From the NCBI RefSeq assembly GCF_988243305.1, contig NZ_OZ547136.1: a stretch of DNA of 64,000 bases, one strand, 5' to 3'. The translations under genes and the position numbers were made by a program. Position 1 is the first letter of the stretch. The number at the start of each line of letters is the position of its first letter. This document shows, in pieces, positions 21,187 through 60,531 of the stretch. The notes under the pieces were generated by a model. It made no database searches and was not told where the DNA came from. It was given only the letters and a program-made list of their open reading frames with translations.

Positions 21187-21437
21187 GGTATCTCCGGTTT
21201 TTCTTATGCAGGGTAGTGCTTGAGATAAATGCTCGGCGGGGCAGTAGAGTTAATGAAGTGTTACTGAACGCCGAAGCTCACTTTTTAAAATTCGTTCTTC
21301 CATGCCCGGTAACGCTCCAGAAAACGGCTTTAATTGTTGTTATGACGCTATTACCTCGGTGAAAGTGATTATTCACTGTTACATACGGGTTACAACGTTA
21401 AAACGGTGCAATCATAGCTATCACATTGTTAAGATAC

Positions 21438-21453
21438 TGTGAAATCACTCACA
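21438..21453. promoter_or_regulatory. CRP-like binding site upstream of mglB
   Basis: tgtgaaatcactcaca matches the CRP consensus TGTGA-N6-TCACA. Confidence 0.6.
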
Positions 21454-24490: not shown

Positions 24491-24714
24491 TTATGATTTC
24501 TCCTGCAGGTGTGACGCCTCCGCCCTGCGTGGGGGCAAAGTTATTAAGCTGATTTACAGCCTGATTATTGTGCGTGAGGCGGCGCACATAATCCAGTATT
24601 CACAGCGATAATTATTGTAATTGCCGCTGCCTTTCATCAGCAGATGTTAAAACATCGTTATGCAAATACGGAAGTGAAAGTTACTCACAGCACATTGAAT
24701 AAACGGTATGATGA

Positions 24715-38198: not shown

Positions 38199-39137
38199 TT
38201 AACCCGCGAGACGCTGGTATTCTTTGGCAATTTCACTCGCCAGAATGGCGTTGTTGAACACCAGTTGGATGTTGGATTTCAGGCTGTCACCGCCAGTCAG
38301 TTCAGCAACACGAGCCAGCAGGAACGGTGTGCTTTCTTTACCAATAACGCCCTGCTCTTCGGCTTCGGCAACGGCTTGATCTATGGCTGCATTGATAGAT
38401 TCCTCCGGCATCGCAAACTGTTCCGGGATCGGATTTGCCACCACCAGGCCACCGTTCAGCCCGCTTTGCCATTTCACCGCCATTGCATGGGCAATTTCAC
38501 TGGCGCTGTCGAGACGAATACTGACGTCAAACGGGCTGGTACGGCAGAAAAACGCAGGCAGCGCTTTGGTCTGATAGCCAATTAACGGCACACCGAAGGT
38601 TTCTAAATACTCAGTGGTTAATCCTAAATCGAGAATAGATTTCGCCCCGGCACAAACAACGGTGACATTAGTATTTGCCAGTTCTTGCAAATCGGCAGAA
38701 ATATCGAAGGTATGTTCCGCCCCGCGATGCACACCACCAATTCCCCCTGTGGCAAATACTTTAATTCCGGCAAGCGCCGCAATAATCATCGTTGAAGCAA
38801 CGGTAGTTGCGCCATTTTTTCCGGCGGCAACAACAAAAGGTAAATCGCGACGACTAACTTTGGTCACGTTATGCCCTTCACGACCCAGCAATTCAATTTC
38901 TTCTTTGCTTAAACCCACTTTCATCACGCCGCCAATAATGGCGATAGTGGCAGGTACAGCGCCCTGTTTACGAATAGTTTCTTCAACTTCAATTGCGGTC
39001 TGGGCATTTTGTGGGAACGGCATCCCGTGAGAAATAATGGTCGATTCCAGCGCCACAACCGGTTTTTTGTTTTTTAAAGCGTCCTGCACTTCCGGGGAAA
39101 TTTGTAATAATTCAGGGGAAATTTTTAATTCAGACAT
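38199..39137 (-). CDS. psuG: Pseudouridine-5-prime-phosphate glycosidase
   Basis: 312-aa product MSELKISPELLQISPEVQDALKNKKPVVALESTIISHGMPFPQN... Confidence 0.95.
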   Translation of the reverse strand: MSELKISPELLQISPEVQDALKNKKPVVALESTIISHGMPFPQNAQTAIEVEETIRKQGAVPATIAIIGGVMKVGLSKEEIELLGREGHNVTKVSRRDLPFVVAAGKNGATTVASTMIIAALAGIKVFATGGIGGVHRGAEHTFDISADLQELANTNVTVVCAGAKSILDLGLTTEYLETFGVPLIGYQTKALPAFFCRTSPFDVSIRLDSASEIAHAMAVKWQSGLNGGLVVANPIPEQFAMPEESINAAIDQAVAEAEEQGVIGKESTPFLLARVAELTGGDSLKSNIQLVFNNAILASEIAKEYQRLAG

Positions 39138-40066
39138 TCTGCGTTCTCCACTAACGATATAACGTTGGCAATCGATAAATCGGGGTTATTGGTGTATTCA
39201 CAGGAGAGCGCCATTGACGAACATCCCTGTGCGAAACGAACAGATTCGGCAAACGGCATTCCGTCTACCCAACACGAAGCAAGCCCCGCCATCATGGCAT
39301 CGCCCGCTCCGGTAACATTAATAACATTGGTTTTGATCGGCGCAGACCAGCCACTTTCACCGCTGATATCACTGTAATAAACGCCATCGCCGCCCATGCT
39401 CAATACCAGTCGGTTCAGGCCATGTTGATGGAACCAGGCAGCAACTTTTGCCACATCTTCACGCCCTGACAGCGCAATCCCACTCAGGGTTTCCGCTTCA
39501 AGGCGGTTTGGCTTGAGAGTGTGGATTTGATTTAGACGGTCGCGCACTTTGACACATTTCCATGCGGAAACCGGATCGACAAATACGGGTACGTTGGCGG
39601 CATTATCCAGAATCCATGCCAGTGCCTCTTCACTGATATTACAGTCTGCGACAATGACCTTTGCCCTCTGAATAAATTCACGGTGCTGTGCGAGATATTC
39701 AGCTGTAATAGCGTTGCTAATATTCATGTCATTTATAGCAACCAGCATTTCACCGGTATTATCGAGTAATGATAAATAGCTTGACGTATTTTCTCCCGGC
39801 ACAATCAGGCATTTATCGACATAAACGCCAGATTGATTGGTTTGCGTTAGCAGCGATTGACCATAAAAATCACTGCCTACGGCGCTCAGTAGCCAGGCTT
39901 TGTTCTCCAGCAACGCCAGGTTTTGTGCAATATTGCGCCCGACTCCACCAGGCGTAAATTTTATTTTACCTGGATTTGAATCCGCATAATTTAATGATTC
40001 ATGTGAATATCCGGCGACATCAATATTCGCCGAACCTATAATTACGACATAATCCTTTTCGCGCAT
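39125..40066 (-). CDS. psuK: Pseudouridine kinase (PfkB family)
   Basis: 313-aa product MREKDYVVIIGSANIDVAGYS...; 13-nt overlap with psuG. Confidence 0.95.
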   Translation of the reverse strand: MREKDYVVIIGSANIDVAGYSHESLNYADSNPGKIKFTPGGVGRNIAQNLALLENKAWLLSAVGSDFYGQSLLTQTNQSGVYVDKCLIVPGENTSSYLSLLDNTGEMLVAINDMNISNAITAEYLAQHREFIQRAKVIVADCNISEEALAWILDNAANVPVFVDPVSAWKCVKVRDRLNQIHTLKPNRLEAETLSGIALSGREDVAKVAAWFHQHGLNRLVLSMGGDGVYYSDISGESGWSAPIKTNVINVTGAGDAMMAGLASCWVDGMPFAESVRFAQGCSSMALSCEYTNNPDLSIANVISLVENAECLN

Positions 40067-40305
40067 AGCACGTCCTCTGGTAAAAAATTACCACCCCTGT
40101 CAATCCACAAGAATATTGATACTGCAAAGACGGTTTAAACATGTGTTCATATTTAAACATGTGCTCATAGTATGCATGTTTTACGTAAAGTAAATTACCG
40201 CCAGAGAGGCAAAATGGGCAGATTTGAGCAGGCTCACAAAACGCGATTAAATGCCTGAATTATAAAAACGGGGAATTTGTGACGGGATGCACAGAACAGG
40301 AACAA

Positions 40306-40489: not shown

Positions 40490-42181
40490 TTACGCTGCTT
40501 TCGCTACTGCGTCCACTTCCGGACGTTTCAGGAAGGCATAGGCCAGACCCGCCACCAGCGTACCGGCAATAATGGCTACCAGGTAACCCAATACCGGCGT
40601 AATCGCGCCAGGGATCAGCAGAACAAACAGACCACCGTGCGGTGCCATCAGTTTCGCACCAATCGCCATTGAGATTGCGCCAGTCAGCGCCCCACCCACG
40701 ATACAGCACGGCAGCACACGCATCGGATCACGGGCAGCAAACGGAATTGCACCTTCCGAAATAAAGCACAGTCCCAGTACCAGAGCGGCTTTGCCCCCTT
40801 CCTGCTGCGCTTTGTCGAATTTGCGACGCGCCACCATTGTTGCCAGGCCCATTGCCAGCGGTGGCACCATACCTGCCGCCATAATCGCCGCCATCGGGCC
40901 ATAGGTTTGAGTACTCAGCAGACCCACACCGAACGCGTACGCTGCTTTGTTTACCGGACCGCCCATGTCAGTACACATCATGCCACCGAGGATCGCCCCC
41001 AGCAGAACCGCATTCGCAGTCCCCATGGTCTGCAGCCAGTGAGTCAACCCTTCGAGAATGCCAGCAACCGGTTTACCGATCAGATAGATCATCGCCAGAC
41101 CGACCACCAGACTGGAAATTAGCGGAATGATCAGAATCGGTTTCAGCGCCTCCATACTCTGCGGCAGTTTCAATTGCGTACTGATTAACTTCGCAATGTA
41201 ACCAGCCAGGAAGCCCGCAATAATACCGCCAATGAAGCCAGAACCGGTGCTGACCGCCAGCATACCGCCAATCAGACCCGGCGTGAGACCCGGACGATCG
41301 GCAATGGAAAAGGCAATATAACCTGCCAGTACCGGCACCATCAACGCAAAGGCTGAACCACCACCAATCTGCATCAGCGCCGCAGCCAACGTACCCGGCT
41401 CTTTAAACGCTTCGATACCAAAAGCAAAAGAAAGCGCGATACACAGACCACCTGCAACGACCATCGGCAGCATGTAAGAGACGCCCGTCAGCAAGTGACG
41501 GTAAGCGCCTGCACTCTCTTTCTTACCTTCAGTGGTCGCTGTTTGAGTTTTGCCCGCCGGTTCATACGGCGTTGCTTCAGCAACCGCTTTATCCAGTTCC
41601 TGCGCGGTTTTCTTCAGCGCCAGACCGGTAGAGGTGCGATACATCGGTTTACCAGCAAATTTCGCCAGATCCACTTCAATATCTGCCGCCACAATCACCA
41701 GATCCGCTGCGGCTACTTCTTCAGGGGTGATTGCATTACCCGCGCCAACCGAACCACGGGTTTCAACTTTCACCCACCAGCCACGTTTTTTCGCTTCGGT
41801 TTCAATGGCTTCAGCCGCCATAAAGGTGTGTGCTACGCCAGTCGGGCAAGCAGTCACCGCAACTACGCGTTTCGGACCGCTGGCGGCAACCGGTGCTGTC
41901 GCAGCGACCGGCGCAGTGTAAGGTTTCGCATGGCCTTTGGCTTCACTCAGGAACAGCTCAGGGTGCGCAACTGCCCGGGAAATATCGCCCAGCCAGACAT
42001 TTTTACCGTTCAGCGCGCTGTCGTTCGGGATGGAATCACCGAGAACAATCGCCATTTCAGCGTCGTTCGGATTGTCGATGATTTCCAGTTTTGCTTTTCG
42101 CGCCGCCGCGCCCAGCAGGGTCTTCGCCATATAGGCGCGTGCCTGACCGAGATTAGCGTCAATAATCAGCAGCGTTTTCAT
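40490..42181 (-). CDS. fruA: Fructose PTS enzyme IIB'BC
   Basis: 563-aa product MKTLLIIDANLGQARAYMAKTLLGAAARKAKLEII... Confidence 0.97.
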   Translation of the reverse strand: MKTLLIIDANLGQARAYMAKTLLGAAARKAKLEIIDNPNDAEMAIVLGDSIPNDSALNGKNVWLGDISRAVAHPELFLSEAKGHAKPYTAPVAATAPVAASGPKRVVAVTACPTGVAHTFMAAEAIETEAKKRGWWVKVETRGSVGAGNAITPEEVAAADLVIVAADIEVDLAKFAGKPMYRTSTGLALKKTAQELDKAVAEATPYEPAGKTQTATTEGKKESAGAYRHLLTGVSYMLPMVVAGGLCIALSFAFGIEAFKEPGTLAAALMQIGGGSAFALMVPVLAGYIAFSIADRPGLTPGLIGGMLAVSTGSGFIGGIIAGFLAGYIAKLISTQLKLPQSMEALKPILIIPLISSLVVGLAMIYLIGKPVAGILEGLTHWLQTMGTANAVLLGAILGGMMCTDMGGPVNKAAYAFGVGLLSTQTYGPMAAIMAAGMVPPLAMGLATMVARRKFDKAQQEGGKAALVLGLCFISEGAIPFAARDPMRVLPCCIVGGALTGAISMAIGAKLMAPHGGLFVLLIPGAITPVLGYLVAIIAGTLVAGLAYAFLKRPEVDAVAKAA

Positions 42182-46838: not shown

Positions 46839-47015
46839 TAATTTATTATACCAATCTTCTATTTTGCGCTTCCTGAACACCTTACGTCCTCAATTTTCAC
46901 TCGTTGATTGATCGCCCTCACACTTCATCGCATTAACAATCCAGACCAATTTCAATTGCTGTCATATAACTTTACACTGTCATTGTTAATTAATCGTTAC
47001 TAAGACGTGACTCCT

Positions 47016-58663: not shown

Positions 58664-59008
58664 TTAAAAAGGATTGTAGTTTGAGAAGGGTTCGGCAATT
58701 GCCACACCAAAATTTTTCAATCGGCATGTTGCAGCAAACTCGTCCTGGCGATTTACAAACAGGCACGGCTCACCTTCACACTCCAGTACCGAACATGGAA
58801 CTTCGATGTCGCTTAACGCCTGGCTGAGTTTGTACATCACCGACCATGCATTATCACCATCCGGGCTAAGCAATTTAAGCGCCACCAGGCTGTTGTCACC
58901 GCACGGTCCATTTTGCGGAATCGGTTCAACCTTCGAACCTGCGAAACCAGCAGACCAGCGATAGTTCTGCGGCAGTCGATGGACGATTGAGAGTTGTAAT
59001 GAAGTCAC
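58664..59008 (-). CDS. yejG: Uncharacterized protein YejG
   Basis: 114-aa product [35 protein letters not shown]... Confidence 0.85.
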
Positions 59009-59299
59009 TTATTTTCCCCGGAAGCACATTTACTTCACAATTTGTTTACATCAATTTTAACACATCATCAACAATCCGTCTTTATACAGATCGTAAAGAT
59101 TGATGCCTCGCCAGCGTGGCCTCTATGGCTCTGATTTAAATAATATCTGCGGGCGTGGTCACGTTTGCGGGGCTATATGTACCCGTTTCTGCGATCTAAC
59201 TCAACCTTTTTAACTACAATGATGTGACTTTTTACATAAATTGATTTTACATAAAATAAACATATATCGGGGGAATGATGGATTTATGGTTGACATGCA

Positions 59300-59326
59300 T
59301 CAACAAAGGAAGCCTTTTAGCTTCCT
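59300..59326 (-). terminator. Intrinsic terminator downstream of bcr
   Basis: aggaagc-cttttag-gcttcct hairpin followed by a T-rich tract on the minus strand. Confidence 0.6.
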
Positions 59327-59340
59327 CGTTGTGCAATAGA

Positions 59341-60531
59341 TCACCGTTTTTTCGGCCGACTGGCGTACAGACAGAAGAGAATGGAGCTGGTTGCGCAGAA
59401 TGCAATTGACCAAATCATCGGCCATGCAGAGTTAAAGGTCGCAAGAGAAAGCAATGCGCCAACAATTGCCCCTATGCCGAAACGGAAGGTTCCTGCCAGC
59501 GAAGATGCCGTTCCCGCCATATGGGGAAACTCATCCAGAATGACCGCCATCGCATTGGATGACACCATCGACACGCAGCCCACAAACGCCGCAACGCCAA
59601 CCACCAGCGACCAGAATCCCAGCCCCAGCAGCGCACTGATGACCATCCACGCCGCCATAATAAACTGTATCCACAACCCCGAGCGGAACATATTTAACGC
59701 GCCAATTCGGCGGACAAAGCGGCTGTTAAAGATGGTCATCACGAACAGGAAAACAATGTTTAGCGCAAAGTAATAACCAAAGTTTTCCGGCGCGACGTGG
59801 TTAATTTCAATGTAGACAAACGGTCCGGCGCTTAAGAACGAGAACATCCCGGCAAAGCTGAAACCACTGGCAAGCATATAACTCAGGACACGCTTATGAC
59901 GGAACAGCGCCGCAAAGTTACCAATAGTAGTACGAATGTGAAAAGGCTGGCGACGCTCCGGTGGTAAGGTTTCTTTGATCAGAAAGAAGATCATTGCCGA
60001 AGCCAGAATCGCCGCCACAGCGAGGATCCAGAAGATGTAATGCCAGCTCAGCCACACCAGCACCCAGCCGCCAACTATCGGTGCCATCAGCGGTGCAATG
60101 GTCGTCACCAGCATGACAAACGACATCATCCGCGAGAACTCTTCTTTCGGGTAGATATCACGCATCAAAGCGTTGATAACCACGCTGGCCGCAGCCGCAG
60201 CCAGACCGTGGAAGAAACGCATCACAATCAGCTGATCGATGGTTTGTGCCAGCGCACACGCCACCGCGGCGGCGGCAAACACCAGCGTACCGCCAAGAAC
60301 CACCGGCTTACGCCCGAAACTGTCTGCCATCGGCCCGTAGATTAACTGCCCCAACGCAAAGCCCAGAATATAAGTACTGAGGGTCATCTGCGTACTGCCC
60401 GCCGGTACGCCAAACTGCGCTGAAATTACCGGTAGCGCGGGCAGATACATATCAATCGACAGCGGCATCAACATGGCCAGCAGGCCAAGGATAAAAACAA
60501 TAGCAAACGACGAATGCTGTCGGGTGGTCAC
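59341..60531 (-). CDS. bcr: MFS multidrug efflux transporter (bicyclomycin resistance)
   Basis: 396-aa product [40 protein letters not shown]... Confidence 0.95.

Follow-up and report, generated by a model that had tools for sequence, protein, structure and literature searches.

What do two identical 11-nt sequences in direct orientation signify in the intergenic space upstream of yejG? In the window, i.e., the whole stretch of 64,000 nt analysed here (contig NZ_OZ547136.1 of assembly GCF_988243305.1, an E. coli chromosome), the sequence TTTTACATAAA occurs exactly two times, at positions 59230-59240 and 59245-59255 of the plus strand with TTGA between the copies, and the identity of the copies ends at 11 nt on either flank. 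A first-pass annotation had read this arrangement, with its fixed phase of 15 bp, as one to which a dimeric or tandem-binding regulator could bind. The sequence and the coordinates given there, with a separation of 4 bp, proved to be exact, and the gene context was right as well, the repeat being situated in the gap between yejG and bcr, beyond the bcr terminator. We consider it likely that both copies are recognition elements for ArcA, (A)TGTAAA(A), in yejG2, the upstream operator for phosphorylated ArcA at the yejG promoter P2, and that yejG is shut off by this operator together with the operator at promoter P1. The genes and the terminator are located as follows.

58664..59008, minus strand: yejG.
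59341..60531, minus strand: bcr, separated from yejG by a gap of 332 bp.
59301..59325, minus strand: intrinsic terminator of bcr, with a GGAAGC/GCUUCC core stem at 59308-59325 followed by a UUUGUUG tail.

All but one of 5426 complete E. coli genomes (i.e., 5425) possess the yejG-bcr gap, and in K-12 MG1655 it has the same length of 332 bp and contains the identical repeat. The hairpin of the bcr terminator folds with -22.3 kcal/mol (z = -5.3), and none of the shuffled sequences folds as well.

Taken by itself, the repeat is weakly above chance and only mildly unusual. As a tandem unit of 15 bp, the two copies match at 13 of 15 positions, and Tandem Repeats Finder does not call an array in the repeat region. 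In composition-preserving shuffles, 0.17-0.25 loci with perfect direct repeats of at least 11 nt at an offset of 11-30 bp are expected per 64-kb window, 2 are observed, and 15-22% of the shuffles contain at least one such repeat. If up to one mismatch is allowed, TTTTACATAAA occurs 3 times in the window, 1.3 occurrences being expected, and the sole 1-mismatch relative is situated at 40179. The significance of the repeat is due to its conservation and to published binding data, both described below, and not to repeat statistics. The same numbers, together with the silence of Tandem Repeats Finder, favor the view that the 11-nt identity itself is functionless, having arisen by chance or by ancient slippage in AT-rich DNA upstream of a promoter, and that only the short elements within it matter. 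We regard this view as moderately probable, and it is compatible with the ArcA explanation, not opposed to it.

The only other short-range perfect direct repeat of at least 11 nt in the window, TTTAAACATGTG, is present at 40134-40145 and 40152-40163 with a period of 18 bp, in the gap between an ORF of 313 aa (39125..40066, minus strand) and an ORF of 563 aa (40490..42181, minus strand). In Table S3 of Shimada et al., this gap seems to correspond to the pscK-fruA spacer, and the repeat adjoins TTTTACGTAAA (40179) as well as two CRP-like boxes (40223 and 40278) given by the same authors.

Two sigma-70 binding events have been reported at yejG, and both were validated by primer extension (Chung et al., 2013; PMC3798280, Table 1). 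The two starts, and the promoter elements belonging to them, are positioned in the window as follows.

59168, minus strand: start of yejG P2 (U00096.2 position 2,276,419; primer extension, PMC3798280, Table 1).
59199..59204, minus strand: -35 hexamer TTGAGT of P2, assigned from the sequence, 17 bp upstream of TACATA and invariant in most species.
59176..59181, minus strand: -10 hexamer TACATA of P2, likewise assigned from the sequence, conserved and 7-8 nt upstream of the mapped start.
59048, minus strand: start of yejG P1 (U00096.2 position 2,276,299; PMC3798280, Table 1), with an extended -10 element TGtTAAAAT at 59062..59054.

Positions of U00096.2 were converted to window positions with an offset of -2,217,251, which was checked by three sequence anchors, namely the ArcA site, an FNR-like site and a GalR/Cra-like site (the last one via a separate offset from NC_000913.3 to the window). 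The published primer-extension primers fit this mapping, primer yejGP2 falling at 59121-59141. With TTGAGT, a 17-bp spacer, TACATA and a mapped start, P2 has the make-up of a sigma-70 promoter, and this arrangement is conserved across genera. The repeat extends from -62 to -87 relative to the P2 start. Besides the two starts, published experiments have established that occupancy by sigma-70 is aerobic only, the ChIP signal at yejG being 1462 under aerobic versus 56 under anaerobic conditions (PMC3688515). A generic consensus scan for promoters and terminators over 58950-59400 called neither P1, nor P2, nor the bcr terminator. P2 was missed because the scan accepts only -10 hexamers with T as the sixth base, and as its criteria are too stringent both for TACATA and for the T-tract of the bcr terminator, published start sites and the fold were used instead. 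Having missed a hairpin of such stability and two mapped promoters, the scan provides no evidence of absence where it is negative. At the P2 start (59148-59172), CCGCAAACGTGACC is similar to the left arm of the PurR consensus, ACGCAAACGTTTGCGT; this likeness is restricted to Escherichia, the right half is poor, and it is probably due to chance.

ArcA is a response regulator of the OmpR/PhoB family that binds to tandem direct repeats. Comparison with published ChIP-seq data, one of the checks proposed in the first-pass annotation, places the repeat on an ArcA site, yejG2 (Park et al., 2013, PLoS Genet 9:e1003839; PMC3798270). The suggestion of a dimeric or tandem-binding regulator was therefore right in kind, the repeat lying inside an ArcA ChIP-seq site upstream of yejG P2, but the site as such had already been published.

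59233..59263, minus strand: ArcA site yejG2, ATGTTTATTTTATGTAAAATCAATTTATGTA (U00096.2 positions 2276484-2276514; -65 to -95 of P2; PMC3798270, Tables S1, S2 and S4).
59245..59255, minus strand: distal copy of the repeat, TTTATGTAAAA in the sense of yejG, containing the ArcA element DR2, ATGTAAA, at 59252..59246.
59230..59240, minus strand: promoter-proximal copy, with an orphan ArcA-type element ATGTAAA at 59237..59231, 15 bp from DR2, and providing also the left half-site of a weak CRP candidate.
59031..59074, minus strand: ArcA operator yejG1, with four repeat elements (2276282-2276325), covering P1 from -26 to +18.

The published sequence of yejG2 is identical to the window from 59263 to 59233 on the yejG strand, and its boundary falls within the proximal copy. 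An ArcA operator upstream of yejG that covers the distal copy and part of the proximal copy is thus already known. The ChIP-seq peak of yejG2 is centered at 2,276,488 (59237 of the window), inside the predicted site; it was called in one of two replicates with 1.9-fold enrichment, and the ArcA box reaches 17.6 bits, with 8.0 bits for DR1, 8.5 bits for DR2 (at 2276500) and 1.4 bits for DR3 (PMC3798270). For yejG1, enrichment was about 8-fold in both replicates and the score is 18.8 bits (PMC3798270, Tables S1, S4 and S6); the yejG2 peak, at a distance of 214 bp from this strong peak at P1, could be a shoulder of it. Expression of yejG is increased 11.9-fold in an arcA mutant of E. coli and the gene was classed as directly repressed (PMC3798270, Tables S5 and S6), while a table of ArcA-regulon promoters of Salmonella includes yejG, for which it gives a predicted ArcA box and expression ratios of 5.84, 2.41 and 2.94 (PMC3848847). 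Both ArcA occupancy of this region and ArcA-dependent repression of yejG are established by these published experiments. Neither a footprint nor a mutational test of yejG2 was found in the literature.

In order to define the register in which ArcA would read the repeat, an 18-nt matrix was rebuilt from 114 published ArcA boxes (Park et al., 2013, Table S3) with yejG1 excluded; the training mean is 15.7 bits. The rebuilt matrix reproduces the value of Park Table S1, 17.6 bits, for 59263..59246.

59246..59263, minus strand: ArcA box ATGTTTATTTTATGTAAA, consisting of DR1 and DR2, 11 bp apart from centre to centre, 17.6 bits.

With its two elements 11 bp apart (element consensus TGTTAA), this box stands at 17.6 bits versus a family mean of about 15.6 bits, and it ranks 4th of approximately 128,000 positions in the window. 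Seven boxes of at least 14 bits exist in the 64-kb window, and three of the seven are situated within the 332-bp yejG-bcr gap, where the two boxes of yejG1 score 18.9 and 18.8 bits with the rebuilt matrix. Elsewhere in the window, strong matches are encountered at 46983-47000 (20.7 bits), 24644-24661 (17.3 bits), 21426-21443 (15.4 bits) and 21247-21264 (15.2 bits), and the 20.7-bit and 15.4-bit boxes are the sequences of the published yeiQ1 and mglB ArcA boxes. When the ArcA box is slid over the repeat, one strong register appears, which is the sole positive one and in which the distal copy is DR2 and ATGTTTA is DR1. With a 7-nt element matrix, the proximal copy scores 8.6 bits, equal to the 8.6 bits of DR2; placed in the 18-nt box, it scores -7.3 bits as DR1 and -4.1 bits as DR2. 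With a spacing of 15 bp, the two copies do not constitute both elements of one ArcA box, for which 11 or 22 bp was considered. The fixed 15-bp phase that had been put forward as a binding register was not borne out: the ArcA box pairs the distal copy with the non-identical ATGTTTA 11 bp upstream, and the proximal copy fits no register of the 18-nt box. As 15 bp correspond to about 1.4 helical turns, this is not the register of a head-to-tail dimer of the OmpR/PhoB type, which again favors a functionless 11-nt identity. Most likely, the presence of perfect copies at a 15-bp phase is incidental, without any functional periodicity.

OmpR and CpxR belong to the same family of winged-helix response regulators as ArcA and recognize similar AT-rich elements, TTTACA or GTAAA, at a phase of 10 bp. 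In contrast to their tandem sites, the spacing at yejG is 11 bp (DR1 to DR2) or 15 bp (between the copies) and not that of GTAAA-N5-GTAAA, and the in vivo data are for ArcA; no OmpR or CpxR data for yejG were found in the literature. The closest comparison is with the yejG2 entry of Park et al. (2013), which concerns the same DNA, a 31-nt site at an ArcA-repressed gene with two TGT elements 11 bp apart. That entry includes a weak third element (DR3) 10 bp after DR2 but makes no mention of the second perfect ATGTAAA, which follows DR2 at 15 bp. Such a spacing is outside the architectures described by Park et al. (10-12 or 22 bp), and at putP even a 12-bp spacing abolished the protection of the third repeat element (PMC3798270). 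Also, most ArcA sites overlap the core promoter, but yejG2 is located upstream of it. A site at -65 to -95, clear of the P2 core promoter, is atypical for ArcA repression and counts against the ArcA reading.

The repeat can be judged further by its history in the enterobacteria. Loci of yejG were taken from 80 species representatives, and the 412 nt upstream of each gene were aligned, the alignment comprising 82 sequences. The genera sampled include Escherichia, Salmonella, Citrobacter, Klebsiella, Kluyvera, Enterobacter, Kosakonia, Leclercia, Mangrovibacter, Siccibacter and Serratia.

59172..59263, minus strand: conserved island of 92 bp, comprising the P2 core promoter and its upstream region, with 10-nt bins that are 0.86-0.95 identical to the window.

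The borders of this island are sharp, since the flanks show identities of 0.25-0.61 and the 3' end of bcr is 64-80% identical (82 sequences). It begins just upstream of the P2 start, includes both hexamers of P2 and ends at about -95. Among E. coli genomes, 5138 of 5425 retain at least 99% identity in the island, versus 614 for the whole gap. Of the 82 aligned sequences, 77 have no gap in the 41-nt segment carrying both copies, and in these the spacing between the TGTAAA cores is invariant. Among the 77 ungapped species, DR2 is invariant in all, the ArcA box reaches at least 14 bits in 70 and the proximal element at least 6 bits in 67. The perfect 11-mer repeat is kept in only 31 of the 77, while the 7-nt cores persist, as would be expected if the 11-nt identity itself is functionless. 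Both cores are highly conserved and the spacing between them is free of indels in 77 of 82 sequences, and therefore both copies are constrained even if the periodicity is not. An absence of conservation in related species had been named in the first-pass annotation as a result that would speak against its proposal; the region turned out to be nearly invariant across the Enterobacteriaceae, although this applies less to the perfect identity of the 11-mer. In two subspecies of Salmonella enterica, diarizonae and arizonae, about 45-60 bp are inserted just after the bcr stop codon, ahead of the terminator. The insert contains an inverted repeat, GTCCCTCAA...TTGAGGGAC, is absent in all other aligned genera and might represent a small mobile or REP-like element.

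A degenerate ArcA box would require far less conservation than the whole 92-bp island displays, which counts against ArcA as the full explanation, and other constraints must therefore be at work in it, such as the core promoter, an UP-like A-tract, CRP and Fis. A nucleoid-associated protein (Fis or H-NS) might bind to the AT-rich block, or curved or UP-like DNA might stimulate P2. The block does contain A/T tracts and, judging from the sequence, AAAAAG as a proximal UP-like subsite at -43 to -38, and Fis ChIP-seq coverage was flagged at the adjacent FNR-like site at 59290, which is not bound by FNR (Myers et al., 2013). However, visual inspection of 59225-59265 gave no convincing match to the Fis consensus of 15 bp (G at -7, C at +7 and the Y/R positions), the cited Fis ChIP data are of low resolution, and near base-by-base invariance across genera is untypical of composition-driven binding of nucleoid proteins. 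We think that this explanation is quite unlikely.

The repeat might also encode a small protein, as a 17-codon ORF, MFILCKINLCKKSHHCS, runs from an ATG at 59264 to a TAA at 59211, with each copy of the repeat encoding L-C-K, and it is present in E. coli, Citrobacter and Salmonella. This ORF lacks a Shine-Dalgarno sequence, and it is preceded by the bcr terminator and followed by the P2 start. In many genera its start codon is TTG, and its substitutions show no third-position bias. In three Kluyvera sequences an in-frame TAA occurs at codon 9 (ATT-TAA) although the DNA is still conserved. With the in-frame stop in Kluyvera, the variable start codon and the missing ribosome-binding site, a coding function is effectively refuted, and we consider it extremely improbable. 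An RNA element was rejected as well, as no Rfam match attains its gathering score and the searches gave only sub-threshold chance hits (ST7-AS2_1 with 20.9 bits versus 80, and CRISPR-DR41 with 18.3 versus 36).

For the proximal copy, CRP is a competitor of ArcA. At class I promoters, CRP sites are centered near -61.5, -71.5, -82.5 or -92.5. The proximal copy could be the left half of such a site (T[A/G]TGT-AAAAAG-TCACA), from which cAMP-CRP would activate P2, and the repeat would then be due to an accidental resemblance of a CRP half-site to the neighbouring ArcA element.

59223..59238, no strand assigned: weak candidate class I CRP site TGTGACTTTTTACATA, TGTGA-CTTTTT-ACATA on the plus strand.

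The likeness to lac-type class I CRP promoters (site near -61.5) consists in a sequence resembling TGTGA-N6-TCACA, whose centre at 59230.5 is located at -62.5 of the mapped sigma-70 start at 59168, i.e., at a class I distance. The candidate matches 8 of 10 core positions, its TCACA is widely conserved, and a core of 8-9 out of 10 is encountered in 60 of the 77 species. With a common A-to-G variant, the CRP core reaches 9 out of 10 in 9 species while the ArcA element drops from 8.6 to 6.5 bits. In addition, the yejG-bcr spacer was bound by CRP in genomic SELEX (Shimada et al., 2011; PMC3105977). However, with a matrix made from 148 SELEX-derived boxes (training median 11.1 bits, 25th percentile 8.2 bits), the candidate scores 7.4 bits, i.e., under the 25th percentile, and ranks 63rd in the window and 3rd in the gap. 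The two better boxes in the gap, at 59330 (11.6 bits, overlapping the bcr stop codon) and at 59190 (10.1 bits, overlapping the P2 -35 hexamer and spacer), are those that Shimada et al. themselves give for the yejG-bcr spacer (PMC3105977). Matches to 8 of 10 CRP core positions are as frequent as expected by chance, with 26 observed in the window versus 23.9 expected, and the right half ACATA lacks one of two key C positions. No report of CRP-dependent yejG expression was found in the literature. On balance, a CRP site in place of an ArcA element seems somewhat unlikely. A combination of both, in which the proximal copy is a deeply conserved, deliberately out-of-phase ArcA element doubling as the left half of a class I CRP site, so that cAMP-CRP and ArcA-P spreading from DR1 and DR2 compete for these 11 nt and P2 is subject to anti-activation by ArcA, is in our opinion distinctly unlikely. 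If it were true, the sequence identity of the copies would reflect dual use in a composite operator and not a single dimer.

Returning to ArcA as the preferred explanation, regulation of yejG might proceed in the following way. Under anaerobic or micro-aerobic conditions, phosphorylated ArcA would bind to DR1 (ATGTTTA) and DR2 (ATGTAAA) as a head-to-tail dimer, and its footprint probably reaches across the weak DR3 into the proximal copy, with which ArcA may make contact. Together, yejG2 and the stronger four-repeat operator over P1, 189 bp downstream, would shut off transcription of yejG. Repression of P2 from -65 to -95 may be exerted by blocking an activator or the alpha-CTD, or by cooperation with the P1 operator. 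The 11-nt identity and the 15-bp spacing would be by-products of two similar elements in a dense, conserved regulatory block. The distance between the starts of the yejG1 and yejG2 operators (59263 - 59074) corresponds to 18.0 turns of a helix with 10.5 bp per turn, which would place both operators on one face of the helix and would therefore permit a repression loop around P2; cooperation of the two operators by looping is pure inference from this geometry.

The near-invariance of the ArcA box and of the P2 upstream block in about 80 enterobacterial species supports a ChIP-seq call that had been made in one replicate. In addition, a second full-strength ArcA-type element is held at a conserved, out-of-phase distance. 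Beyond annotation these results have little weight, as the site is an ArcA target already catalogued in a well-studied regulon.

Several other regulators were considered at the repeat and rejected. As judged by eye from their consensus sequences, a TyrR box (TGTAAA-N6-TTTACA), CpxR (GTAAA-N5-GTAAA), FNR, IHF, NarL and PhoB do not fit. A palindrome with FNR consensus is located just after the bcr terminator at 59290-59303 (GTTGACATGCATCAAC, 59289-59304), reading TTGAT-GCAT-GTCAA on the yejG strand; it is conserved in most aligned species, and in many other genera it is a perfect TTGAT-N4-ATCAA. Position 2276541 was reported as a predicted FNR site of 14.1 bits without FNR ChIP peak and with overlapping Fis ChIP-seq signal (Myers et al., 2013). 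Cra was rejected at the repeat because its published signal most likely corresponds to GCGGAATCGGTTCAAC at 58915-58930, inside the yejG coding region. This sequence is an operator of the LacI family (Cra/GalR-like), given in PMC5110547 as a match to the GalR motif. The intragenic Cra ChIP-exo peak in yejG (PMC5888115) probably originates from it, as probably do the Cra binding in EMSA and the repression described in PMC8085971.
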